Source: a phage
DNA length: 64,000 nt
Direction: 5' to 3' (one strand)
Sequence record: PZ583739.1
The position numbers were made by a program, and so were the translations under genes. Shown here in pieces: positions 3,174-54,243 of the stretch. The notes beneath the pieces were generated by a model. It did no database searches, was not told the origin of the DNA, and saw only the letters and a program-made list of their open reading frames with translations. The stretch's first letter is position 1, and the number at the start of each line of letters is the position of its first letter.

Positions 3174-3677
3174 TCAGTTAATACCTTGGCGTGCTTTCTC
3201 TTTAGCCACACATTTATTAATATAGCTCAGACGGTTTTGAGCAGAACGCTGATACATATCGCGGTACTCATTAGCTTTTGGAGAACCCGTCTCCGCTGCC
3301 TGATAAGCTTCTGCGCGCATGATGTTTATCTGCATATTGATATATGACATGCAGACCTGTGAAATCTGGTTAACAGTATCCAGGTCATTTTGTCGCTTAG
3401 TTTCTGCTTCCAGCTTGGCAATGATTTCGTCATGCTTCGCAGCTTGCTCGCGTTTGTACTCAATTTCTTGTTGAGCATATTTCGCGCAGTTGTTTCCACA
3501 TTGATTGTTGTCGCGTTTGTAGATAAGTCCAGTACCGCCTTTGAAATCAAAGGAACCATTATGCACCTGACGGTCTGCAGCAATTCGCGCTTTACCAATC
3601 TCGTTGGCATTAACAACATCACCCTGGTAAGCACAACCAGATAGCAGCATAACAGCTGCGATAGCTAACTTTTTCAT
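3174..3677 (-). CDS. Predicted lipoprotein, 167 aa
   Basis: N-terminus MKKLAIAAVMLLSGC (signal peptide + lipobox); RBS GAGGAAA upstream of ATG at 3677; ORF-track start at 3704 is a longer extension. Confidence 0.55.
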   Translation of the reverse strand: MKKLAIAAVMLLSGCAYQGDVVNANEIGKARIAADRQVHNGSFDFKGGTGLIYKRDNNQCGNNCAKYAQQEIEYKREQAAKHDEIIAKLEAETKRQNDLDTVNQISQVCMSYINMQINIMRAEAYQAAETGSPKANEYRDMYQRSAQNRLSYINKCVAKEKARQGIN

Positions 3678-3827
3678 TGTATTTTCCTCAATTAAAACAT
3701 TCATAGCGGGCTTGGAGCCCCAAAAATACCCAACCCAAAATTAAAGTTGGAATCATATGCGGAGTCATTATTGCCCAATAGATTGACATACTAAAAAATG
3801 CAATCAGTACAATAATTGTAATTATCT

Positions 3828-4139: not shown

Positions 4140-6854
4140 TTAAAAGTCAAACATATCAAAAAGAGTTGCTTTCTTTTCGTAATCAACCTTTGCAGCTTCA
4201 GAGAAACCTGTTAATGGCTTAACAAAAGTCTTCTGGAACAGTATGTTGTAGTCCATCCACTGCAGAACCTGGTCACGGATTTCAATCGGGAGTTCAATCC
4301 CAGATGGCCATGCAATCACGGTTTCACCAAACGGGTTACCGACTTTAAGAGGAAGTACATACACCTTTTCCCCTTCCATGATTTGTGGAACAGTCTTCAG
4401 ACCTTTAGTTGCACGCATATATGCAAGCACACCTTTGATATGAGCCGGGCACTTAAATCCAGGGAAACCGCCTTCATTATATTTCTGGATGTTGTTAACC
4501 GATGATACACCTGCGATGGTCATGTAGTTAAGCTCATTAAATTCCTTATTGAATTCCTTGAAGTATGTCTGCAGAGATTCTTCACCTTCTTGCAGCATAC
4601 GGCGGATACATTCTTTCAGAGCTTTCTGACATGCCTTTGGAGTACTCGACTTTTGAGTTTCCAGACCCATGATTTTCAATTTCGGAACAGCATATCGTGT
4701 GCCTTCCATATCGTACACGTTCAGTGCATAACGCTTCTTCGCCGTCCAGAATCCACCCACACCCTTAGAACCCAGCGGAGGACATGCAATCGCTTCACGG
4801 TCCATAAACATAAGGTGCTGTTTGTTGTTCATGTATTCAGCCAGCTCACGGAAAGCTTTATCGATTGCCGGTTCCAGACGGTCTTTCGCAAACTTGTCCA
4901 TGAAGTCAACCAGGTGGTTTGTATCACGGAATTTAGATTCGCCACCAACCTTTTTAATCAGGTTATCGCACTGGATATAAATGGAGTCAGTATCGCCATA
5001 GAACACATAAGTTTCGCCGCTTGTCCCACAGACACTATCGAAGTATTCGTTAACTTTACGCTCAATCCACTGCAATGCAAGTTGTCCGAAAGATGTAATC
5101 GCGGTTGCATTTCGCAGGTCAAAGTAACGGAACCAGATATTGCCCAGAGCGCCATAACAACTGTTGATAAGCAGTTTACGGTTAATCTGTGCGGTCATGC
5201 CTGCAACTTCTTCCATCTGCGCTTTGTACAACATACCATTCAGGACTGTTTGATTCAGACCATGCAGGGCCGTTTTCATATTGTCATCAAAGTCATGACG
5301 ATAATCAACTTCTGGTTCGGTTGTGCCAGTTCCTGGATTACGCAGAGCTTCCTTAATCAGTTCACCATTACGTTGAGCCGCAAGCATATAGCCTTTGTGC
5401 TCTTTACGCTGATTAAACACCTTGGTGACTTCTGTCGGAATAATACCCGCAACATCTTTAAAATACATCATACCATTTGGAGCACAACTAAATGTATCAG
5501 ATGGACGGTCAGCAGTTCCTGCGATGTATTCATACATCGGCGCTGGGGCAAATGAACCGGCAATCGTTTCTGGACTGATATTAATCTGTCGGATGATGCT
5601 TGGATACAGAGATGTTAAGTCACAGCTCATCACATATTTGTACGCGTTCGGAATAGGTTCCTTAACAAATGCACCAGGGAACGATTGACGAACATGCGAT
5701 TTGGTTTCCGGAATGACTTTGTTTTGAGTCTTCAGGCTGTTAAAGATAATCGCATCCCAAGTTTTGATTGGGCTGAATACAGACTGAATCTGCATTTTTG
5801 CGTAATAACCCATTGACTGACTCAGGTTAATAAACTGCCGCTTACGGTCAATCTGCACAACACGATAAACGTCGATGATGTTATAAGAAATATACCGCTG
5901 GTGATTTGATTCACGCAGTTTAGAAATCGGACCATCATACGGGAGTTTACCAACACCCAGTTCAGATTCCGCAACATAATCCAACGAATAAGACGGTTGG
6001 TTTGTGAAGCTGAACTTTTTATACAGGTCCAGATAATCCAGAACAGAGATACCCAGAATCTGAATGATTTCTTGTTCTTCACCAAAGCCGTTGTTAATGA
6101 CCTTAACTTTTGTACGACGATGTGGGCTCAGACGTTTTGCCGTAGCTTCACCAAATACATTTTTAAGACGGTTGTAGATATATGGAATATCAAACTTCTC
6201 GATGTTCCAACCGGTTAACATAACCGGAGTTTTCTCGTTCCAGAATACCAAATACTGCTGGAGCATTTCTTCTTCTGAATCGAAAGCCATATAAACAATT
6301 TTTTCCAGGATTTCTTCAGGGACTTCATCACCACCGTCTTCCTGCAGCTTAGCAGCAATATCAATAGACCATTGCTCCACAGTGGCGTATGGTGAGCCCA
6401 AAAGGTCAAAGACATAGAATTTATCGTCTACCGAATCATAGTGCGTCAGGGCATCAATAGGGTGACGTGCTTCAGACGGTTCAGGGAACCCATCAGGAGA
6501 TGTCACCTCGATATCGAAGTTAGCAACACGGATTTTACTTGAATCATATTTGATTTCGTGTGGGTAACGGTCGGACAAGTATGCGAGTTTAAAGTCATCC
6601 ATACCCATAACTTCGAGGCCCATGTCATTCATTCGCTTCATCCACTGGGATGCATCACGCATGGAATCGAATTCTTTTTTCACACAACCTTTATTATAGA
6701 TGTCTGTATACTTTGCAGCCTGGCCTTCCCGGGCGTGCATAAACAAGCATGGGGCATAAGGGATTTCACGAACACGTTCATGACCATTCTTGTCAATATA
6801 TCGTTCGAGTAGGTTGTCACCGATTTGTTCGATAGTTAAATAAAATTCTTGCAT
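4140..6854 (-). CDS. 43: DNA polymerase gp43 (family B, with 3'-5' exonuclease)
   Basis: 904 aa; exo motifs FDIEV, Pol motifs DLTSLYPSII, KLLINSCYG, YGDTDS; C-terminal ...KKATLFDMFDF as in RB69/T4 gp43. Confidence 0.98.
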   Translation of the reverse strand: MQEFYLTIEQIGDNLLERYIDKNGHERVREIPYAPCLFMHAREGQAAKYTDIYNKGCVKKEFDSMRDASQWMKRMNDMGLEVMGMDDFKLAYLSDRYPHEIKYDSSKIRVANFDIEVTSPDGFPEPSEARHPIDALTHYDSVDDKFYVFDLLGSPYATVEQWSIDIAAKLQEDGGDEVPEEILEKIVYMAFDSEEEMLQQYLVFWNEKTPVMLTGWNIEKFDIPYIYNRLKNVFGEATAKRLSPHRRTKVKVINNGFGEEQEIIQILGISVLDYLDLYKKFSFTNQPSYSLDYVAESELGVGKLPYDGPISKLRESNHQRYISYNIIDVYRVVQIDRKRQFINLSQSMGYYAKMQIQSVFSPIKTWDAIIFNSLKTQNKVIPETKSHVRQSFPGAFVKEPIPNAYKYVMSCDLTSLYPSIIRQINISPETIAGSFAPAPMYEYIAGTADRPSDTFSCAPNGMMYFKDVAGIIPTEVTKVFNQRKEHKGYMLAAQRNGELIKEALRNPGTGTTEPEVDYRHDFDDNMKTALHGLNQTVLNGMLYKAQMEEVAGMTAQINRKLLINSCYGALGNIWFRYFDLRNATAITSFGQLALQWIERKVNEYFDSVCGTSGETYVFYGDTDSIYIQCDNLIKKVGGESKFRDTNHLVDFMDKFAKDRLEPAIDKAFRELAEYMNNKQHLMFMDREAIACPPLGSKGVGGFWTAKKRYALNVYDMEGTRYAVPKLKIMGLETQKSSTPKACQKALKECIRRMLQEGEESLQTYFKEFNKEFNELNYMTIAGVSSVNNIQKYNEGGFPGFKCPAHIKGVLAYMRATKGLKTVPQIMEGEKVYVLPLKVGNPFGETVIAWPSGIELPIEIRDQVLQWMDYNILFQKTFVKPLTGFSEAAKVDYEKKATLFDMFDF

Positions 6855-8105: not shown

Positions 8106-9073
8106 TTCATTTCCCCAGCCAGTTGAGCAAACAGATAAGTCAAGTGTACTTCGGTATTGGCCGCAATGCCATGATACTGATTATTCTCACCTACAATCTC
8201 ATACATGCGGATGATACTTGCACCAGTCAGTTTGCCATACATTTCATCAGCCAGCTTTGCAATGAAGCTTGAATAATCATTTGCATGCTTAGGAGCCAAG
8301 CCACGGAGAACTTTAAAGTTACGGTCCTTAAGGGCATCAATCACATCATCAATTGGTGTGCGATTGTTTGTCACGATACTCAGAATACCAGAATCGATAA
8401 CACCCTTTGCAGAGTAACGGTCAAGCTCGTTAATTGTCTTACGCAGGTCCGGGAAGTTATGCTTAACCAGAGCAGCAACAACTTTCAGGTCTTCGATTTC
8501 AACGCCTTCGTTTTTACATACCGCGACTGCACGATGAATCATCTCTTTCATCATGGTAGTCTGGTCAGCCGGAGTTGCTTCACCGAATTTAATGACGCGA
8601 CAACGAGACTGCAACGGAGTGATGATACCATCGATATTGTTCGCGGTCATAATGATTGAACAGTTACTCGAATAAGCTTCCATAAAGCTACGGAGGTGCC
8701 GTTGTGATTCAGCCAGACCTGCACGGTCGAACTCATCGATAACGATTACCTTGCGGCGACCTTCGATTGATTTGGATGATGCAAAGCGAGTCAATTCATT
8801 ACGCACAAAGTCAATTCGGCAATCGGAGCCGTTAACAAACAGCATATCAGAATTCGTATCTGCACACATAGCTTTTGCAACTGTTGTCTTACCAGTACCA
8901 GGGGAACTACTGACCAGAATCAAGTTAGGAATCAAACCTTTTTTAACAATCGCCTCTAATGTTTCTTTATCATGGGCCGGGAGAATACACTCTGATAATG
9001 TACCTGGGCGATATTTTTGTTCCCACATGAAGTCGGATTCATTGACTGTCAAACCGTTAATTACTGTTGCCAT
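8096..9073 (-). CDS. 44: Clamp-loader ATPase gp44 (AAA+)
   Basis: Start trimmed to ATG at 9073 (MATVINGLTV...) with RBS GAGGA; Walker A SPGTGKTT, IVIDEFD, SRC motif; collinear with T4 gp44. Confidence 0.93.
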   Translation of the reverse strand: MATVINGLTVNESDFMWEQKYRPGTLSECILPAHDKETLEAIVKKGLIPNLILVSSSPGTGKTTVAKAMCADTNSDMLFVNGSDCRIDFVRNELTRFASSKSIEGRRKVIVIDEFDRAGLAESQRHLRSFMEAYSSNCSIIMTANNIDGIITPLQSRCRVIKFGEATPADQTTMMKEMIHRAVAVCKNEGVEIEDLKVVAALVKHNFPDLRKTINELDRYSAKGVIDSGILSIVTNNRTPIDDVIDALKDRNFKVLRGLAPKHANDYSSFIAKLADEMYGKLTGASIIRMYEIVGENNQYHGIAANTEVHLTYLFAQLAGEMKWL

Positions 9074-9110
9074 TATTATTTTCCTCATATTAGTTTCTAC
9101 TTTGTACTCC

Positions 9111-9128
9111 ATGGGGCCGAAGCCCCAT
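9111..9128 (-). promoter_or_regulatory. Intercistronic C(UUCG)G tetraloop hairpin between genes 45 and 44
   Basis: Minus-strand RNA AUGGGGC-UUCG-GCCCCAU; 7-bp stem, UUCG loop. Confidence 0.5.
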
Positions 9129-9131
9129 TTA

Positions 9132-9827
9132 TTAATCTTGGAATTCGTGGCTAGAGCCTTGTTCCATTGCAATCACATAGCTTGCTTGTGTGCCTTCAAA
9201 CTTCGTAGCAAATTTATCATCTTTCGCCCAAAGCATAACACGGTAATCAGCCGGAATCATTTTCATATTCAGTTTGTTAATGATAAATTTAAACGCTGCA
9301 TCGCCTTCGTAATCGCCACACACCAGGGAATACAATGGACGCGCTAATTCTTTATCTTCGAGCTGGTTATAACCATGGATAACAATCTTACCGTCTTTGT
9401 TGGTGATTGCAAAAGTGTCCAGAGACAAACCACCAGCCACACGCAGAAGCTGCTGCAGGTCACTGCCTTTCAGGTCGAAGATAACCTTAGCTACCGGGAA
9501 AGGAATCTTCTTAGCAGGGAACACGATAGTGCTCGGGTCAGCTGCAGGCCAGTGAATCGTTGAACGTTGGTCTTTGATAATGATATTCGATGCATCTTCA
9601 GACAGAGATACTTCAGCTTGGTCAGTTACCAGGCCCAGGATACTTAAGAAGCCGTTCAGGTCATAAATTGCCGCTTCAAAGTCGATTGTATCATTGATTT
9701 CAGATTCACCATATGACGCTCCAGTTACAGAACGAGTTAGGATGGTATTGCCTGGTTTAAGCATAATGCCAGAGTAGATGGAGGTGAAGTTTTTCAAAAC
9801 TGCGATGGTGTCACGACTAAATTTCAT
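9132..9827 (-). CDS. 45: Sliding clamp gp45
   Basis: 231 aa; MKFSRDTIAVLKNFTSIYSGIMLKPG...FWPAADPST...LQQLLRV; collinear with T4 gp45. Confidence 0.95.
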   Translation of the reverse strand: MKFSRDTIAVLKNFTSIYSGIMLKPGNTILTRSVTGASYGESEINDTIDFEAAIYDLNGFLSILGLVTDQAEVSLSEDASNIIIKDQRSTIHWPAADPSTIVFPAKKIPFPVAKVIFDLKGSDLQQLLRVAGGLSLDTFAITNKDGKIVIHGYNQLEDKELARPLYSLVCGDYEGDAAFKFIINKLNMKMIPADYRVMLWAKDDKFATKFEGTQASYVIAMEQGSSHEFQD

Positions 9828-10711
9828 TTCATTTTCCTATTAACATAATAATTTGACCAGGACCGGATTGCACCCTGATAGTTTTCATCATTAAACCCAT
9901 GTTCAATGGCGTGTTTTCTAAACTTAATATACCCTGGTTGGCCTAAAGCATTCCACAATGCTTTAAGTTCATCTTCATACTGTAACCAGGTTCCTCTTGC
10001 TTTAGATTTCCTAAATTTTTCTTTAAATTCAGGGTTGGCATTTCGTTCGGTTGCTCGTTTTGAAGCCTTTATTCTATTATCTGAATTATTCCAATATTCA
10101 GTAATTGATTTTAAATATTTTTCATATACTTCAGATGTATTCATTATAGCTTTGAATTTTAAAGCATACTCAACATCTTTATAACGATTTTTGACTTCAA
10201 CAGACCTTGCTTGTCGAGCTTCGTCAGTCCAATATTCTTTTTGGAAGTCTTTAATTGCTTGAATGTGCTTATCTGAAATTGAACAATCTTTACGAACACC
10301 AACATAATCAGATGTAAGTTCAGATGGATGTAATTTAACAACTTTACCCGTTTTCAAGTTTCGGTATGGAGCATATCCAGGAGCATCATAGCGGCTTTTG
10401 TCGTGTGCATACGTTTTATTAAAGTATTTCTCATTGGTTACAGCTTTAACTGACATTTGAAAAATATTTTCTATTTTCCTTGGGTCCTGTTTTGTTTCCC
10501 CAATGATAGTAACAATATAGTCACCGCTATCAATTAATTCATTATACAGCGTAGTATATTTTGAATTCGGAGAACCTGTATAAATTTTATTATTTTTATC
10601 GAGAATATTTTGGCCATTAAATGTCGTATCAACCTTTGAACCAATATAATAACAAGGGAATTCATTATTTTGTTCCCTTGTTATAAAGGTTATTTTATAA
10701 ATCAAATTCAC
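9824..10711 (-). CDS. GIY-YIG family homing endonuclease (Seg-like), free-standing
   Basis: N-terminus LIYKITFITREQNNEFPCYYIGSK fits the GIY-(10-11 aa)-YIG motif; inserted between 45 and rpbA; basic C-terminal half. Confidence 0.7.
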   Translation of the reverse strand: MNLIYKITFITREQNNEFPCYYIGSKVDTTFNGQNILDKNNKIYTGSPNSKYTTLYNELIDSGDYIVTIIGETKQDPRKIENIFQMSVKAVTNEKYFNKTYAHDKSRYDAPGYAPYRNLKTGKVVKLHPSELTSDYVGVRKDCSISDKHIQAIKDFQKEYWTDEARQARSVEVKNRYKDVEYALKFKAIMNTSEVYEKYLKSITEYWNNSDNRIKASKRATERNANPEFKEKFRKSKARGTWLQYEDELKALWNALGQPGYIKFRKHAIEHGFNDENYQGAIRSWSNYYVNRKMK

Positions 10712-11139
10712 GCAACAACTGCCATTTGTTTGCGGATAGCTTCCGGAAGAGATTCAATATACTCTGGAAGTTGCGCAGCAATAATAGAACCAGCTTGGAC
10801 CAGGTGGTCGTCGAAGTCAACACAGTAATCATCTTCGAGACGTTCGGAACCGTCACGGTCGATAACCAGTTTAGCACCAGCAGCCAGTGAATCGTTGTAG
10901 TGATTACGCATCAGTTCAATCCACTTATCAGATACATCAGTATCAATCACACCGTACAGCATGAATTTAATTTCTTGCGGCAGAGACTGCAGACGGGCAG
11001 CAGATGCTTCATCACATGCCAGGACCCAGGATTTGCGGATGCGGTTTTGGTTGTGTGGGTTAGCGTCGGTGCGGATGGTTTTAACTTGGATATCTTTAGC
11101 AGTTACGTTGTTCATAATATTCTCTCTATTCATTATCAA
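10708..11139 (-). CDS. rpbA: RpbA-like RNA polymerase-binding protein
   Basis: Position between 45 and 46; segment TIRTDANPHNQNRIRKSWVLACD...LQSLPQEIKFMLYGVIDTDVSDKWIELMRNHYNDS recalled from T4 RpbA; true start uncertain. Confidence 0.65.
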   Translation of the reverse strand: MIMNRENIMNNVTAKDIQVKTIRTDANPHNQNRIRKSWVLACDEASAARLQSLPQEIKFMLYGVIDTDVSDKWIELMRNHYNDSLAAGAKLVIDRDGSERLEDDYCVDFDDHLVQAGSIIAAQLPEYIESLPEAIRKQMAVVA

Positions 11140-39554: not shown

Positions 39555-39854
39555 TTAGAAAGAACCAGAACCTTTAATTGTGTTCTGGCGACCTTTATTT
39601 TCTAATTCAGAATGGTCAATTTCATATGCTTGTGCTACGCCAAAGGCCTTTTTAACTTTAGCTAAAGAACCTTTAGATGTAACAATATTAAAAGTATTGC
39701 CTTTAGTAAAATCAACCGAATCCACTTGCACGCCCTGTTTACCGAGGCTTGCTACAATAGCATCAACATATTGTTGGTCTAAATTACCTTGGACTCCGAT
39801 TTGAAATGCTTTAGGAGCTTTAGCTTCTGTGATAAATTCTTTATAAGTTAACAT
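39555..39854 (-). CDS. Internal-protein-like small protein with CTS-like N-terminus
   Basis: First ATG gives MLTYKEFITEAKAPK..., resembling the T4 internal-protein capsid targeting sequence MKTYQEFIAEA. Confidence 0.45.
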   Translation of the reverse strand: MLTYKEFITEAKAPKAFQIGVQGNLDQQYVDAIVASLGKQGVQVDSVDFTKGNTFNIVTSKGSLAKVKKAFGVAQAYEIDHSELENKGRQNTIKGSGSF

Positions 39855-40319: not shown

Positions 40320-40345
40320 GTTTGTTCTCCGTAGTTGATAGGGTC

Positions 40346-40374
40346 ATTATAACCCTATCATTTGGAGATGTACA
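40346..40374 (-). promoter_or_regulatory. T4-type early promoter upstream of denV
   Basis: Minus strand: TGTACA, 17 nt, TATAAT, then GACCCT. Confidence 0.45.
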
Positions 40375-40644
40375 TCATTTCTTAGAGTATTGACCCATAA
40401 GTTTAGCGATATCACCCAATTTCTGATTAAACAAATAATCCACTTCTTTACCAGATTTATCTACAATTTGCCACTGGCCACTTCCTTTGTTACCAAAGGT
40501 CCAATCACCAACTTTAAATGAAGTTCCATTAACTTTTTTAATAGAAGTAAACTCAAAGCCTTCTTTCTTAGCTAAAAATGCCATGCGGCTTTCATCTGAT
40601 TCATTTAATACAGATTCAGCCAAAAATTCTTGATACGTTTTCAT
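40375..40644 (-). CDS. Capsid internal protein (IPII/IPIII-like) with capsid targeting sequence
   Basis: 89 aa; N-terminus MKTYQEFLAES matches T4 CTS; located between denV and e as ipII/ipIII are in T4. Confidence 0.7.
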   Translation of the reverse strand: MKTYQEFLAESVLNESDESRMAFLAKKEGFEFTSIKKVNGTSFKVGDWTFGNKGSGQWQIVDKSGKEVDYLFNQKLGDIAKLMGQYSKK

Positions 40645-48855: not shown

Positions 48856-49410
48856 TTAGTTCTTATAAAAACGGAACGGATTTATATGAAAGGCGAGCAT
48901 AGCCTTAGGGATGGGTCGGGACAGAAGGCTCTTGAGCTTCCAGCCACAATAAACACGCAGATAAAAGGTGATTCCACCGACCTTAAGATAAGGAACAGAA
49001 GCAAAAACACCCCAGGCATTGTCCGTCCACATAAAGAGCCATCCATGATGAGCTTTATCCGGGGAACCAGATTCGACATCAGGATTACCTTTATAATGGA
49101 ATTCTGAATTGCAATCACGACCGAGCTTGTGGTAAGCAAAATTGTATGCTTTGTTTCGCCAGAGCCAGGCTACTCGTTGAAAGTAAACACCTAATGGCCA
49201 TTTTCGGATTTTTGACCAACGTTTGACATGACCTCGGTCACCATCAATCGGATTATCATAAGTCATCATCCAATCAAATCCGAACGGAAGTTTACCAGTC
49301 TTTTTATTATGGAACGGAACTACAAATGGAGCCAGGATAACGGCCAGAATCATGGAGATAAAATCCAGCGGAACTAACAGAATCCAACTCAAATATTTTA
49401 ACAGTTTCAT
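48856..49410 (-). CDS. Membrane protein, ~184 aa
   Basis: Trimmed to MKLLKYLSWILLVPLDFISMILAVILAPFVVPF (N-terminal TM); Trp/His-rich; TATAAATC (late-promoter-like, 7/8) lies 20 nt upstream. Confidence 0.45.
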   Translation of the reverse strand: MKLLKYLSWILLVPLDFISMILAVILAPFVVPFHNKKTGKLPFGFDWMMTYDNPIDGDRGHVKRWSKIRKWPLGVYFQRVAWLWRNKAYNFAYHKLGRDCNSEFHYKGNPDVESGSPDKAHHGWLFMWTDNAWGVFASVPYLKVGGITFYLRVYCGWKLKSLLSRPIPKAMLAFHINPFRFYKN

Positions 49411-49432
49411 ACGTTTCTCTTTAGTTGATTTA

Positions 49433-49461
49433 TAAAAAAGCCCCAACCTTTCGGAAGGGGC
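49433..49461 (-). terminator. Rho-independent terminator
   Basis: Minus-strand hairpin AGCCCCuuccgaaagguuGGGGCU followed by U6. Confidence 0.55.
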
Positions 49462-49499
49462 TATACCTTGTCGGGGTTCCACCTGCAAGGCAAGTGTTC

Positions 49500-49883
49500 T
49501 TATCCGCGAGCGAATGCCATTGCAGCGCGTTCGTTGGCACGGTCGGTGATGTTCAAGAATTTATCACGAGCGATTTCGATTGGAGCGCCAACCCAGTCAG
49601 CGGCACCATTACCTGGAGACTGTTTAGGACGAACCATATAAGTTGAAACTTTGGAACCGGCTAGTTTAGCACCTGGTGCTGCTGCGTTTTTAACGTCTTT
49701 GGCTTTGATACCAAACCCAGTTACGATACCCCAAGAAACACCATTAACTGGTTTCTTGAACATAACACGGTCACCAATTGAAACACCGGCTTTTTCTGGA
49801 GCCACTAAAGAAAATTTGCCAGCTTCAGTCAGTACGGATTCGGTGATGGTATTGCGATTTAAAAATTCTGCATATGTAAGCAT
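49500..49883 (-). CDS. Small protein with CTS-like N-terminus (internal-protein candidate), 127 aa
   Basis: MLTYAEFLNRNTITESVLTEA...; late promoter TATAAATA 32 nt upstream. Confidence 0.5.
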   Translation of the reverse strand: MLTYAEFLNRNTITESVLTEAGKFSLVAPEKAGVSIGDRVMFKKPVNGVSWGIVTGFGIKAKDVKNAAAPGAKLAGSKVSTYMVRPKQSPGNGAADWVGAPIEIARDKFLNITDRANERAAMAFARG

Positions 49884-49914
49884 TTTGTTTTTCCATTATT
49901 AGGGTTGTTGTTAA

Positions 49915-49922
49915 TATTTATA
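49915..49922 (-). promoter_or_regulatory. T4 late promoter TATAAATA
   Basis: Exact TATAAATA on minus strand 32 nt upstream of ATG at 49883. Confidence 0.55.
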
Positions 49923-50120
49923 TTCCATAGTACCGGATGCACCATCCGCTCGGATTTCTCATACTACCGGGCGCACCGCCCGCTCTGGAAAAACTCCGTA
50001 AAAGGGTGCGCCGTTTCTGCTGTGATATAAGGGGACATCAACAAATCGTAAAGATTTATTAATGTCAGTCCTTAAACAGGGAACATCAGTCCGACGACTT
50101 ACCGGTAGCGACCCGGTTTC

Positions 50121-50360
50121 TCATTCAATTGTAATAGCTAATTTGACTTTAACAACCTTATAATTGGAATCAAGGTCATTGAATTCCATAAAATTTGTTG
50201 CTAATCTGCGAGTCGGGAAACTTAGATATTTATTATGAGCCGGAGGAGCGGTTAATGCAAACCATGGGACTTGTTTATCATTTGCATCAAACTCGTCAAA
50301 GCTATAAACCAGCTCGTTGTTGGTTATATCCATAACCGCGTAGGATTCGTTAATAACCAT
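50121..50360 (-). CDS. Hypothetical protein, 79 aa
   Basis: Trimmed to ATG at 50360 with RBS GAGGA; the ORF-track N-terminal extension runs into tRNA-Arg. Confidence 0.4.
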   Translation of the reverse strand: MVINESYAVMDITNNELVYSFDEFDANDKQVPWFALTAPPAHNKYLSFPTRRLATNFMEFNDLDSNYKVVKVKLAITIE

Positions 50361-50375
50361 AATATCCTCAGTAAT

Positions 50376-50452
50376 TGGTCGGGGTGGTGGGATTCTAACC
50401 CACAACCTACGGTTTAGAAGACCGTTGCTCTATACAATTGAGCTACACCCCG
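50376..50452 (-). tRNA. tRNA-Arg (anticodon UCU), CCA encoded
   Basis: Hand-folded cloverleaf: acceptor CGGGGTG/CACCCCG, anticodon stem ACGGT/ACCGT, loop CTTCTAA, T-arm GTGGG-TTAGAAT-CCCAC, discriminator A + CCA. Confidence 0.8.
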
Positions 50453-50454
50453 GG

Positions 50455-50528
50455 TGGCCCCATCCGGACTTGAACCGGAAACCTGCCAGTTATGAGCCGG
50501 ATGCTCTAACCAATTGAGCTACAGGGCC
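50455..50528 (-). tRNA. tRNA with CAU anticodon (Met, or Ile if lysidine-modified)
   Basis: Hand-folded: acceptor GGCCCTG/TGGGGCC, D-arm GCTC-AATTGGTTA-GAGC, anticodon loop CTCATAA, T-arm TCCGG-TTCAAGT-CCGGA. Confidence 0.8.
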
Positions 50529-50533
50529 TAAAA

Positions 50534-50800
50534 TTAAATTACAAATCCAGCGGGAGCATTATCATCTTTTGCCATGTGCTGAATTGTATGATAAGTCATT
50601 TCTTCCGGAGCAACCAGATAAGCCGCAACGTTAACTAGTGGAATTATTTTTGGTTTAGCGAATGTGCTATCGGCAATTGCCATAAAGGACTCGCCGTCGG
50701 TCTCAACTTCGCCAAATTGACATTCATATGAAATAGAACAACGTTTGGTAGTTGTTGTCTTGGTTTCCGGGTCATAAAAAGCTAATTTTAATACTAACAT
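50534..50800 (-). CDS. Hypothetical protein, 88 aa
   Basis: ATG at 50800 with RBS GAGGTG; immediately upstream of the tRNA pair. Confidence 0.4.
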   Translation of the reverse strand: MLVLKLAFYDPETKTTTTKRCSISYECQFGEVETDGESFMAIADSTFAKPKIIPLVNVAAYLVAPEEMTYHTIQHMAKDDNAPAGFVI

Positions 50801-51398: not shown

Positions 51399-51784
51399 TC
51401 GCATGTTCCTTCATCAACAATAGTATGCGTATTGGCATTAACAATCTGCCACCAGTCAAAACGGTTGGAACCATAACAAGGCTTCTTCTCGTTTTCTTTA
51501 ATGATATCACGCAGTTCATCTTCAGTCGCAGCCTTTGCGATTAAGTCAGCATAACCGCCACGAGGATAATAGCTATCACCAGCAAAGAGCAAAAAGTTTG
51601 TTTTGATATTCTTGAATTCTTCAAGAGTAATAACTGTTCCATTTGGTTGAACAATATCTACATAACTATACCCTAATTTTTGAGCTTCATCTACTGCTTC
51701 AAGCAGGGTGTCATGCGCCCACCCAATTTGGCAATCTGGTTTTTCAGATGGATTTGCCTGATAATCCGCGTACACTTTATACAT
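51395..51784 (-). CDS. Hypothetical protein, 129 aa
   Basis: ATG at 51784 with RBS AAGGTG. Confidence 0.45.
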   Translation of the reverse strand: MYKVYADYQANPSEKPDCQIGWAHDTLLEAVDEAQKLGYSYVDIVQPNGTVITLEEFKNIKTNFLLFAGDSYYPRGGYADLIAKAATEDELRDIIKENEKKPCYGSNRFDWWQIVNANTHTIVDEGTCE

Positions 51785-51785
51785 T

Positions 51786-51971
51786 TTACTCACCTTTGGA
51801 GATTTTATCCATAACGAAAGAGATTGAACCAATTAAAAATGCAACTACTAAAGAGATTATATTCTCAGAAGTTGAAAGCATATTCAACATAAAGCCAGCA
51901 AACATGCTAAAACCAAAAGCGGTAACAGCAACAAGGGCAGTAACATTTCTAATTAATTCGCAACGTTTCAT
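51786..51971 (-). CDS. Small membrane protein, 61 aa
   Basis: Two hydrophobic helices. Confidence 0.4.
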   Translation of the reverse strand: MKRCELIRNVTALVAVTAFGFSMFAGFMLNMLSTSENIISLVVAFLIGSISFVMDKISKGE

Positions 51972-52032
51972 TTTATTCTCCTCATATTTTGATAGGGTTA
52001 TAGTATCTCAACTAGAACCCGTTGTAAACAAT

Positions 52033-52257
52033 TTATTCCACACCAGCAGCTTTCAAAAGTTTTTTAAGATTGGCAGTACCTTGAGCGGAAAATGTGACTT
52101 TGCCACCTTTTTCACCGATGCTACCGGTCAATTTAGCAAGTTTATCACTTGGAATTTTTTTAAAATCAGCCAGTGTACCATCAAAGGTTTTTGTAACAAC
52201 TGGCAGTTCATCTTCGTGTCTTTTAGCTTCGGTAATAAATTCTTGATAAGTTTTCAT
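52033..52257 (-). CDS. CTS-tagged capsid internal protein candidate, 74 aa
   Basis: N-terminus MKTYQEFITEA; own early promoter. Confidence 0.65.
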   Translation of the reverse strand: MKTYQEFITEAKRHEDELPVVTKTFDGTLADFKKIPSDKLAKLTGSIGEKGGKVTFSAQGTANLKKLLKAAGVE

Positions 52258-52287
52258 TTTGATTCCTATTGTTTATTTGATGAGATA

Positions 52288-52316
52288 ATTATACAATATC
52301 CCATTCAAAAGTACAC
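52288..52316 (-). promoter_or_regulatory. T4-type early promoter
   Basis: Minus strand: GTGTAC, 17 nt, TATAAT, then TATCTC. Confidence 0.45.
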
Positions 52317-52571
52317 TTATTTTTTAGGGATACGGTAGTAACGCATCTCAACATCTTTCTGCTTGTACCACTTTTTGATAAGGTCTTCAGAACCTTTAAT
52401 AGTAACGATGTCATAGCGACCATCATGCGATACTTCAGCACTTAACTGCATGAAGTTGTCTAGTGAACGACGCAATTCCTCATTAGAAAAACTACCACGC
52501 GGGGAACCAACATAAGCAAACTCAACTTTTGCATCTGCGGCTTCGTTAATAAATTCTTGATAAGTTTTCAT
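52317..52571 (-). CDS. CTS-tagged capsid internal protein candidate, 84 aa
   Basis: N-terminus MKTYQEFINEA; own early promoter. Confidence 0.65.
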   Translation of the reverse strand: MKTYQEFINEAADAKVEFAYVGSPRGSFSNEELRRSLDNFMQLSAEVSHDGRYDIVTIKGSEDLIKKWYKQKDVEMRYYRIPKK

Positions 52572-52596
52572 GTTGTCTCCAGTAGTTGATGAGATA

Positions 52597-52626
52597 ATTA
52601 TACTGCAGTTATCCCATCGCGTATAC
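52597..52626 (-). promoter_or_regulatory. T4-type early promoter
   Basis: Minus strand: GTATAC, 18 nt, TATAAT, then TATCTC. Confidence 0.4.
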
Positions 52627-52627
52627 T

Positions 52628-52870
52628 TTATTTTAAGTCTTCCAGACGTTTTTTCATCTTGGTGCCGTTCTTAGCAATCTCGCCTGCATCAGAACAAAGA
52701 GCAAGGAGAGCTTTAACTTTACCCTGGTCGCCTTTAAAAGATGATGCATCTACTGAATCAGCAAGTTCTTTGATACGTGCAAACAGGCGCTCTGCTTCAG
52801 CAAGGGCTTGACCAAGTTTAACTTCCATACCATGGGAAGATTCTGTTATAAATGTTTGATAAGTTTTCAT
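52628..52870 (-). CDS. CTS-tagged capsid internal protein candidate, 80 aa
   Basis: N-terminus MKTYQTFITES. Confidence 0.65.
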   Translation of the reverse strand: MKTYQTFITESSHGMEVKLGQALAEAERLFARIKELADSVDASSFKGDQGKVKALLALCSDAGEIAKNGTKMKKRLEDLK

Positions 52871-52878
52871 TTGAAATC

Positions 52879-53151
52879 CTATTTTAGATAAATTGCATAT
52901 TTTTTATAACCAGCCGTCTCATGGCGAAGACCCTTGTCATTGGCAAAACGCTCAATGTTATTAATTTGGTTCTGGTCAAGTTCTGAAATGTCAAACGCGA
53001 AAAAGTTGCGTTTGTTGCCAATTGTTATATGGTCAGTTAAGTCAATGCTATACAGGTGATTGATATTGTCAATCATAGCTTTGACCGCTTTACTAATTTT
53101 TACTTCTTCATTCAGTTGTGACTCGTTGAAAAATTCATTGAAAGTTTTCAT
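52879..53151 (-). CDS. CTS-tagged capsid internal protein candidate, 90 aa
   Basis: N-terminus MKTFNEFFNES; late promoter TATAAATA 10 nt upstream of the ATG. Confidence 0.6.
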   Translation of the reverse strand: MKTFNEFFNESQLNEEVKISKAVKAMIDNINHLYSIDLTDHITIGNKRNFFAFDISELDQNQINNIERFANDKGLRHETAGYKKYAIYLK

Positions 53152-53159
53152 AAGAAACC

Positions 53160-53492
53160 TTATTTATAAAGTTTTGCCAGTTCTTTACGTCCGCGAGCAG
53201 ACATAATAAATTGTTCATCGCCAATTTTAAAATAAGCCATACCACCGTCAACAGCGATACCAATTTCTTTAGTACCTTCTTTGCCTTTCCACTTGCCACC
53301 AGATTTCAGGACAGCTTCAACTGCAGCTTTGGAATATTTGGACGTTTGAAAACGTTCATTACCAATCTGAAAGAAAACACCATCTGCATTTTTGGATAAA
53401 CCAAATTTCAGAGAGCCTTCACTATCATCAATTGATTTGGTCTCATTGATGGCGGATTCGGCTAAAAACTCGTTGTAAGTCTTTATGTTCAT
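53160..53492 (-). CDS. CTS-tagged capsid internal protein candidate, 110 aa
   Basis: N-terminus MNIKTYNEFLAES; own early promoter. Confidence 0.6.
   Translation of the reverse strand: MNIKTYNEFLAESAINETKSIDDSEGSLKFGLSKNADGVFFQIGNERFQTSKYSKAAVEAVLKSGGKWKGKEGTKEIGIAVDGGMAYFKIGDEQFIMSARGRKELAKLYK
53161..53168 (-). promoter_or_regulatory. T4 late promoter TATAAATA
   Basis: Exact TATAAATA on minus strand overlapping the stop of the upstream gene. Confidence 0.5.
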
Positions 53493-53523
53493 TTTAACTC
53501 CGTTTGTTCATTGGTGTAGGAAC

Positions 53524-53552
53524 ATAATACTGCACCTACACTCATTTGTACA
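53524..53552 (-). promoter_or_regulatory. T4-type early promoter
   Basis: Minus strand: GTGTACA, 17 nt, TATTAT, then GTTCCT. Confidence 0.45.

Positions 53553-54243
<691 letters not shown>

Follow-up and report, generated by a model that had tools for sequence, protein, structure and literature searches.

Five adjacent small genes with capsid targeting leaders at the ipI locus of a T4-like phage: candidate injected anti-defence proteins

On the minus strand of a 64,000-nucleotide stretch of phage DNA (sequence record PZ583739.1; the whole stretch is hereafter called the window), positions 52033-53492 hold five small genes, here named A to E, each of which opens with a capsid targeting sequence (CTS) like those of the internal proteins (IPs) of phage T4. 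We read the five genes as ip cassettes at a hypervariable ipI locus, whose products would be loaded into the head by the CTS, injected with the DNA and, most likely, directed against host defences, and we give this reading a probability of roughly 0.78. It builds on the sequence features of the genes, the identity of the locus, membership in known families, the mosaic arrangement of the cassettes and the purifying selection acting on them; by analogy with T4, these would imply packaging, cleavage, injection and an anti-defence role for A-E.

Results

Five CTS-led genes occupy the ipI locus

A first-pass annotation of this DNA had pointed to five adjacent small genes with an internal-protein leader, and the list of open reading frames (ORFs) contains all five, head to tail and at exactly these positions (Table 1). 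The pattern KT[YF]..F..E was found 6 times in a six-frame translation of the 64-kb window against 0.06 occurrences expected, and 200 triplet shuffles gave a mean of 0.04. All 6 occurrences fell at residues 2-4 of minus-strand ORFs of 74-110 amino acids (aa), which amounts to an enrichment of about 100-fold, found at ORF starts without exception. The annotation had also equated the leaders with those of T4 IPI, IPII and IPIII; this holds for IPII and IPIII (MKTYQEFIAEA), whereas IPI starts with MKTFKEFTSTTTPVSTITE/A and has a 19-residue leader.

The array is bordered by genes 57B, 57A and 1 at one end and by trna.4, with a trna.3-like gene, at the other. Since T4 carries the single gene ipI between 57B and trna.4, the order 57B-[array]-trna.4 places the array at the T4 ipI locus. 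The phage is a T4-like myovirus of the Tevenvirinae, and its closest relatives are Gaprivervirus-type coliphages. Matches to 51800-53700 were present in 94 phage records, the best full-length ones (about 93%) being Escherichia phages MN01, vB_EcoM_RZ and DK-13 and Yersinia phage vB_YenM_P8 (YenM_P8), with partial matches of up to about 97% in VR20/25/26-type Gapriverviruses. The exact gene combination with the divergent A allele of the window was not found in the phage collection, where the best full-length match was 93.5%.

Table 1. Positions of the CTS genes, their promoters and neighbouring features in the window. A slash follows the last residue of each possible gp21 cleavage motif; nt, nucleotides; SD, Shine-Dalgarno sequence; N17 and N18, spacers between the -35 and -10 hexamers.
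Feature	Position	Strand	Length	Leader or sequence elements	Match or context
ip gene A	52033-52257	-	74 aa	MKTYQEFITE/A	phrog_8765 'internal virion protein', 3.7e-27
ip gene B	52317-52571	-	84 aa	MKTYQEFINE/A	phrog_8111 'internal virion protein', 2.2e-15; Ip6-family member
ip gene C (Ip5 family)	52628-52870	-	80 aa	MKTYQTFITE/S	phrog_3499 internal head protein, 2.4e-41
ip gene D (Ip9 family)	52879-53151	-	90 aa	MKTFNEFFNE/SQLNE/E	phrog_7673 'internal head protein', 1.7e-56
ip gene E	53160-53492	-	110 aa	N-terminus MNIKTYNEFLAES; leader MNIKTYNEFLAE/SAINE/T	phrog_3966 'unknown function'
ip gene F	40375-40644	-	89 aa	MKTYQEFLAE/SVLNE/S	Between lysozyme e and denV; phrog_8765, 2.6e-37
ip gene G	39555-39854	-	99 aa	MLTYKEFITE/A	Adjoins denV, opposite side from F; phrog_2667 'internal head protein', 1.5e-41
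ip candidate H	49500-49883	-	127 aa	N-terminus MLTYAEFLNRNTITES; leader MLTYAEFLNRNTITE/SVLTE/A, long IPI-type	
Promoter and hairpin before E	53493-53553	-		-35 GTGTAC 53553-53548; -10 TATTAT 53529-53524; N18	
Promoter and hairpin before B	52572-52627	-		-35 GTATAC 52626-52621; -10 TATAAT 52602-52597; N18	
Promoter and hairpin before A	52258-52316	-		-35 GTGTAC 52316-52311; -10 TATAAT 52293-52288; N17	Hairpin z = -2.0
TATAAATA before D	53161-53168	-		E's last codons TAT-AAA-TAA (Tyr-Lys-stop)	9 nt upstream of D ATG
Exact late-promoter motif before H	49915-49922	-		TATAAATA	31 nt before H ATG, then SD GGA; exact in L004 too
57B	53553-54008	-			Acb1 anti-CBASS phosphodiesterase family; Pfam Acb1 1.7e-59 and T4 synteny
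trna.4	51786-51971	-		Own promoter GTTTAC-N18-TACTAT at 52029-52000	phrog_1692

Targeting and processing residues are kept in the leaders

Mutagenesis of the IPIII leader has assigned targeting to residues 4 and 7 and processing to residues 8 and 10; a 10-residue CTS is enough for head targeting, and gp21 cuts after L/I-x-E (PMC9026906). All eight CTS proteins of the window, that is, A-E and the products of three further genes (F, G and H) treated below, have an aromatic Tyr or Phe at position 4 and Phe at position 7 (Y4/F7 in A, B, C, F, G and H; F4/F7 in D), E after a 2-residue N-terminal extension. I/L-x-E stands at residues 8-10 in A (ITE), B (INE), C (ITE), E (LAE, plus INE), F (LAE, plus LNE) and G (ITE). 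D, whose leader in full is MKTFNEFFNESQLNE, has FNE at 8-10, with a non-canonical Phe8, and a canonical LNE at residues 13-15. H, like IPI, is without Glu-10; its ITE at residues 13-15, the counterpart of ITE at 17-19 in T4 IPI, is followed by LTE at 18-20. A gp21 site, either at residues 8-10 or downstream as in IPI, is thus predicted in every one of A-H. The predicted mature bodies measure 6.8-10.7 kDa with an isoelectric point (pI) of 8.8-9.6 (about 10.7 kDa and pI 9.3 for E), the exception being D with a pI of 6.8; a basic character is also found in the T4 IPs (PMC9026906).

The relatives of E in other phages all begin MKTY. In the clade of the present phage the ancestral ATG has become ATA (53484-53492), and the start has moved two codons upstream to an in-frame ATG that has a GGAG in good position, MNIKTY replacing MKTY; this shift is a natural test of the tolerance of the CTS to N-terminal extension. 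The genes for the head lie beyond the window, which ends about 10 kb past 57B. YenM_P8, with the same five-gene array, encodes gp21 (Peptidase_S77, 4.9e-102), gp22 (T4_CASP) and gp67 (GP67). MN01 and vB_EcoM_RZ have the array as well.

The bodies are mutually unrelated and belong to different families

When the bodies were compared without their leaders, BLASTP in an 11-sequence database gave nothing significant, the best pair being E-F at an E value of about 0.024-0.026, and hhalign of all pairs among A-H and T4 Ip1-3 gave probabilities of at most 2%. The annotation had described the bodies as unrelated to each other, and both comparisons agree with it; the similarity of E and F (E = 0.024, probability 2%) may be taken as a hint only. 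PHROG matches common to A and F (phrog_8765) and to B and G (phrog_2667) were considered as signs of body kinship and discarded, as they were not reproduced after leader removal. These overlaps probably reflect heterogeneous clusters held together by the CTS.

Across 28 related loci, T4 and the window, 71 CTS ORFs fell into 20 body families, and the eight CTS proteins of the window represent eight different ones, none of them T4's. A-D, F and G belong to a named or annotated internal-protein family; E and H do not, and qualify solely by leader and locus. D is 79% identical to Ip9 of RB15 (P0026), a homologue of C is labelled Ip5 in VR26, and the body of B clusters with VR26 Ip6-type proteins (fam0; 13 sources, made up of 12 related loci and the window). 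In the annotation of YenM_P8, 4 of the 5 array genes are called internal head or virion proteins, while E is a 'hypothetical protein' in every record seen. Pfam returned sub-threshold noise only for all eight CTS proteins, and a PDB sequence search with A-E and H gave no match at E<0.01.

For E, an AlphaFold2 (AF2) model from a 12-sequence alignment (predicted local distance difference test score, pLDDT, 76) contains two beta-beta-beta-beta-alpha repeats, in agreement with an internal repeat in the E sequence, and the predicted fold is Whirly/PUR-like. A BFVD fold search with this model returned its own family and weak uncharacterised matches only. E would be a candidate internal protein of an Ip family not recognised before.

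Cassettes are exchanged, and their coding sequences are conserved

Among the related loci (labelled L003, L004, L007 and so on), the interval between 57B and trna.4 measures 268-1666 bp and contains only CTS genes, one to five of them, in 27 of 28 cases; the maximum of five is reached in the window and in a VR20-like contig. Gene order and content vary among phages, each family being present or absent even between near-identical ones. An A-type gene, for example, adjoins 57B in several lineages and trna.4 in the window. Leaders and bodies also come in different pairings: elsewhere the D-type body follows MKTYQEFIAES or MKTFNE(F/L)FNES, and the C body in L007 has a long IPI-type leader, MKTFKEFAAKTTITE/S. 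At the starts of the cassettes, DNA repeats were found, namely a 29-nt CTS-coding repeat in four copies, a 56-nt repeat in three, and a 21-nt promoter segment in two (A and B, 95%).

Compared with YenM_P8, A and both its flanking intergenic regions show 65-76% nucleotide identity (75.6% for A itself), against 91-99% for the remainder and 94-99% in the part of it that flanks A. The closest A alleles (85-90%) lie directly beside 57B in other phage lineages. Because the drop in identity is confined to A and the adjoining intergenic DNA, and the nearest alleles are in other lineages, A can be recognised as a swapped cassette. Within the genes, change is of another kind. In the cleanest comparisons, the substitutions in C, D, E and H were all synonymous (7/7, 6/6, 11/11, 13/13 and 20/20, the last two for H), and overall these four genes carried 0-1 non-synonymous change per 4-20 substitutions (D versus its relatives, 6/6 and 11/12 synonymous). 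Such near-exclusively synonymous change marks C, D, E and H as real genes under strong purifying selection. Judged from these alignments, the diversity of the array arises by cassette replacement and not by rapid point mutation.

Early-type promoters within hairpins precede three of the array genes

The annotation had ascribed an early promoter of their own to three of the genes, and early-type promoters are indeed present before E, B and A (Table 1). In that of E, the inverted repeat GTGTAGG/CCTACAC encloses the -10 hexamer (hairpin -16.3 kcal/mol, z = -2.5), and the SD is GGAG. The promoters of B and A have TATAATTATCTCATCAA in common (the 21-nt repeat, D9), and the layout of the A promoter is homologous to that of the T4 ipI promoter, GTTTAC..TACTAT (TACCTCATCAA). 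D and C each start 8 nt after the upstream gene with an SD of their own; given these short gaps, E-D-C probably form one transcription unit.

A -10 hexamer in the loop of an inverted repeat was seen in the array promoters and in those of denV, trna.4 and T4 ipI, with z from -1.2 to -6.4. The six promoters of this type lie at 53504-53531, 52580-52616, 52279-52306, 40332-40352 and 51990-52020 on the minus strand of the window and at 11890-11930 of L003 (T4 ipI); the one before denV reads ATAGGGT-TATAATG-ACCCTAT and has the z of -6.4. The enclosing stem might serve in recombination, in processing or in promoter control.

One array gene had also been credited with an exact late motif. The motif, TATAAATA, is present before D; as a late promoter of D it was rejected. 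It occurs 5 times in the window against 5.66 expected, which is no commoner than chance, it is formed by the terminal codons of E, and before D it occurs only in loci where E precedes D, being absent when D has another neighbour. Given its distance of 9 nt from the D ATG, a late transcript starting there would be without an SD. The copy at 53161-53168 is therefore probably not a dedicated late promoter.

Further CTS genes lie at the second ip locus and in a third slot

The annotation had listed further CTS-like genes at 40375-40644, 39555-39854 and 49500-49883, and all three were found, as F, G and H. The region of F and G (the latter starting at an ATG inside a longer ORF that opens with TTG) corresponds to the second ip locus of T4, the ipII/ipIII neighbourhood. 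It is polymorphic too: F is missing between lysozyme and endonuclease V in YenM_P8, where a 55 bp gap is found.

H lies just past the tRNA-Met/tRNA-Arg/rnaD-like region, between an rnaD homologue and a phrog_2143 gene. Searches of Pfam, PHROG and the PDB with H found no match. Its family is a near-orphan: only 16 phage records carry it, at identities of 99% or more and either labelled hypothetical or left without annotation, and a set of 5.8 billion proteins contains one cluster of it. In an exhaustive HMMER search, H matched a 53-aa N-terminal fragment that is nearly identical to it, and two remote homologues with body identities of 47% and 42%. The homologues start with MYTFKEFLVESELDLITE/A and MKSFKEFMLSE, both CTS-like, and the contig that carries one of them is T4-like. 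Upstream of these two, one-mismatch versions of the late-promoter motif, GATAAATA and AATAAATA, are found. The AF2 model of H is of low confidence (pLDDT 61), and the likeness of its core to SH3/KOW/Tudor barrels is suggestive only.

The same slot holds different CTS proteins of 153-205 aa in at least 8 other loci (L007-L011, L014, L029 and L030, around 8800-11030). They match phrog_2280 ('unknown function'), most have an exact late-promoter motif, and none is annotated as an internal protein. For T-even phages, 'two Ip loci' have been discussed (PMC12373910); by position and leaders, the interval between the rnaD homologue and the phrog_2143 gene is a third polymorphic CTS-gene slot.

Neighbouring features

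Next to the array, 57B is a full-length member of a known anti-defence family (Acb1, a cyclic-nucleotide phosphodiesterase that counters the cyclic-oligonucleotide-based antiphage signalling system, CBASS). Beside H, the DNA at 50005-50124 (minus strand) aligns over 121 nt with T4 rnaD, which stands for the stable 'species 2' RNA, at 88% identity. Rfam has no family for this RNA, and at 49400-50700 it identified two tRNAs only. The rnaD homologue lies downstream of tRNA-Met (50453-50528) and tRNA-Arg (50376-50452), no rnaC homologue was found, and the region has 2 tRNAs against 8 in T4. A listed 94-aa TTG ORF at 50121-50405 (minus strand) overlaps tRNA-Arg; as its phrog_33509 match (1.4e-56) covers residues 16-94 only, the real start is probably an ATG near 50360, just past the tRNA.

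Discussion

A proposed route from head loading to host defence

In the pathway that we propose, the CTS of about 10 residues would dock each protein into the gp22 scaffold core of the prohead through its aromatic residue 4 and Phe 7, and the gp21 prohead protease would then cut after the Glu of L/I-x-E. The freed body, small and mostly basic, would remain packed alongside the DNA, at a copy number probably between tens and hundreds per head, and would be injected with the genome and hence be present before any phage gene is expressed. There it would most likely bind and block a host nuclease or another first-line defence, each unrelated body targeting a different defence variant, as T4 Ip1, Ip2 and Ip3 do for GmrSD. 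The common module with which the cassettes begin, made up of promoter-hairpin, SD and CTS codons, would supply short homologies for recombination.

The anti-defence step is an analogy with T4, in which each of the proteins Ip1, Ip2 and Ip3 inhibits a GmrSD type IV restriction enzyme of its own (PMC12373910). IPI* blocks the enzyme of strain CT596, Ip2 and Ip3 block two further variants, and none protects against the target of another (PMC12373910, PMC3012670). The internal proteins of T-even phages have been reviewed (PMC3012670, PMC9026906); for the description of the polymorphic ip locus, PMC12373910 and PMC4122927 cite Repoila et al. 1994. That A-E make up a diversified set of candidate injected anti-defence effectors, as the annotation put it, is supported by position, leader, size, charge and family membership, and is already the published view.

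Several points weigh against this. The bodies have no detectable kinship with those of T4, as BLASTP against the T4 IPs gave E values of at least 0.33 and hhalign against T4 Ip1-3 at most 1.2% for each window family. Ten other ip genes gave no new inhibition of five additional active GmrSD systems (PMC12373910). Among the leaders, that of D deviates at CTS position 8 (Phe for Ile/Leu), and that of E is longer by two N-terminal residues. The array itself shows three early-type promoters and no convincing late promoter, so that the late expression needed for head assembly would have to come by read-through or from unrecognised signals. A literature search for virion proteomics of close relatives (VR7/JS98-type phages) gave nothing usable. 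The Whirly/PUR-like fold predicted for E and its basic charge would fit a DNA-binding structural role equally well. Lastly, Gaprivervirus genomes are reported to be without a gene for dCMP hydroxymethylase, the hydroxymethylcytosine (hmC) synthase, while keeping denA, denB, alc and dCTPase (PMC8056088, PMC12115623). In a genus that reportedly is without hmC synthase, the GmrSD paradigm, specific for glucosyl-hmC, may not transfer; the targets may then be modification-dependent nucleases of other specificity, or other systems.

Concerning DNA modification, the window contains a 176-aa ORF at 3174-3704 (minus strand), with no Pfam match and with phrog_1754 (unknown function), between the genes for DNA polymerase (4140-6854) and uvsX (1653-2831). 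In T4, gene 42 (dCMP hydroxymethylase) and beta-gt (beta-glucosyltransferase) map to this region, between imm and uvsX. The 176-aa ORF is a candidate DNA-modification gene; the annotation of YenM_P8 is too noisy to infer such genes from it.

Other readings of the array

The small, basic bodies predicted for most of these proteins would also suit head components that are packaged but mainly structural, associated with the DNA and serving charge, DNA organisation or ejection, in which case their diversity would reflect weak constraint. T4 IPs do bind DNA at low salt, with lysines touching DNA phosphates (PMC9026906, PMC3012670), and the SH3/KOW/Tudor-like core of the low-confidence H model would be in keeping with such a role. 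However, the strong purifying selection on C, D, E and H would be unexpected for generic polycations, and D is not basic (pI 6.8). Moreover, the families come and go among near-identical phages, as host-specific accessory functions do, and all three T4 IPs are specific, non-essential GmrSD inhibitors (PMC12373910). We therefore consider a mainly structural role unlikely.

The proteins might instead act in the cytoplasm after early synthesis de novo, the CTS being a hitch-hiking remnant of recombination and packaging incidental, or absent for D and E. Sigma-70-like early-type promoters directly before E, B and A, with no credible late promoter in the array, would agree with this, as would the Phe8 of D (VR-type D alleles have Leu at position 7), the mutated ancestral start codon of E, and the place of the CTS codons within the repeated module that mediates cassette exchange. 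Against it, the CTS is conserved at the protein level over 20 unrelated body families and in homologues that are only 42-63% identical. As this conservation includes the residues for targeting and processing (PMC9026906), selection would act on the CTS peptide and not on the DNA alone. Furthermore, T4 ipI has the same early promoter-hairpin layout, yet IPI is proven to be packaged and injected (PMC3012670), and the start mutation of E was compensated by an in-frame ATG that keeps the leader. Action after early synthesis only is thus quite improbable.

A random grouping of small ORFs, or an error of annotation with the true coding on the other strand, where a 231-aa ORF (TTG start, 51643-52338) spans trna.4 and A, can be dismissed: the motif is far above chance and confined to ORF starts, the minus-strand proteins have PHROG matches of 1e-15 to 1e-56, substitutions are synonymous in the minus-strand frames, and the plus-strand ORF has no PHROG match and is spurious.

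Implications

Taking the five genes as anti-defence ip cassettes, injected internal proteins would act before gene expression and decide the survival of a T4-like phage in the first seconds in a given host strain, which makes them relevant for host-range prediction and the choice of therapeutic phages. It is tempting, though at present doubtful, to go further and suppose that the phage injects at least eight CTS-tagged proteins from three loci, the third being the late-promoter slot of H, and that, as the genus seems to have no hmC synthesis, some of them neutralise defences other than the GmrSD enzymes directed at glucosyl-hmC; E, which might bind nucleic acid, is one candidate. If true, this would extend the internal-protein paradigm beyond type IV restriction. 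Eight such proteins together with an uncharacterised DNA modification would make this phage group a good one in which to seek non-GmrSD targets.

Comparison with known systems

The Dar proteins of phage P1 are large, unrelated to the array proteins and without CTS/gp21 logic, and they act against type I restriction-modification. The P1 Dar system (DarA, DarB, Hdf and others) is nevertheless alike in that its proteins are packaged in the head and injected with the DNA against restriction (PMC12810830). The ejection proteins of phiKZ/SPN3US-like phages have N-terminal propeptides that a gp21-like protease removes after Glu (PMC9026906, PMC5694885), as predicted here; they differ in being large inner-body proteins without a short, transferable 10-residue leader and without cassette arrays.

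Closer in genetic organisation are the PeSL elements (Arbiol 2010; Comeau 2014, PMC4122927), in which a sigma-70-like promoter, a stem-loop and an SD are repeated before variable ORFs and break-points lie at these repeats. These promoter-stem-loop cassettes have been implicated in the modular shuffling of hyperplastic regions of T4-like phages (PMC4122927). In the array, however, the stem encloses the -10, whereas the published stem lies just upstream of the promoter (PMC4122927), and the repeat reaches about 30 nt into the coding region, over the CTS codons.

With the cassettes of the Ip4-Ip10 type (Ip5 of RB51, Ip6 of T6, Ip9 of RB15; Repoila et al. 1994, as represented in later papers that cite it), the array shares direct family membership through B, C and D, and it resembles them in locus and in shuffling. 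E and H are set apart in that none of the records seen gives them an Ip name or calls them internal proteins. The likeness to T4 IPI, IPII and IPIII extends to the slots (57B-trna.4 and denV/e), the logic of Tyr/Phe-4, Phe-7 and L/I-x-E, the small and mostly basic proteins and, for ipI, the early promoter within a hairpin. The differences are that the bodies are without detectable homology, that the ipI slot has five genes here and one in T4, and that the hmC synthase of T4 makes its DNA a GmrSD substrate, whereas the present genus is reportedly without this enzyme (PMC8056088, PMC12115623). The array belongs to textbook T-even biology; five-gene arrays nearly identical to it have been deposited in GenBank, and both the concept and the majority of the families are published, so that it adds entries to a catalogue and not a new principle. 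What we add is the labelling of E and H as candidate internal proteins, the third CTS-gene slot, and the replacement of cassettes under strong purifying selection.

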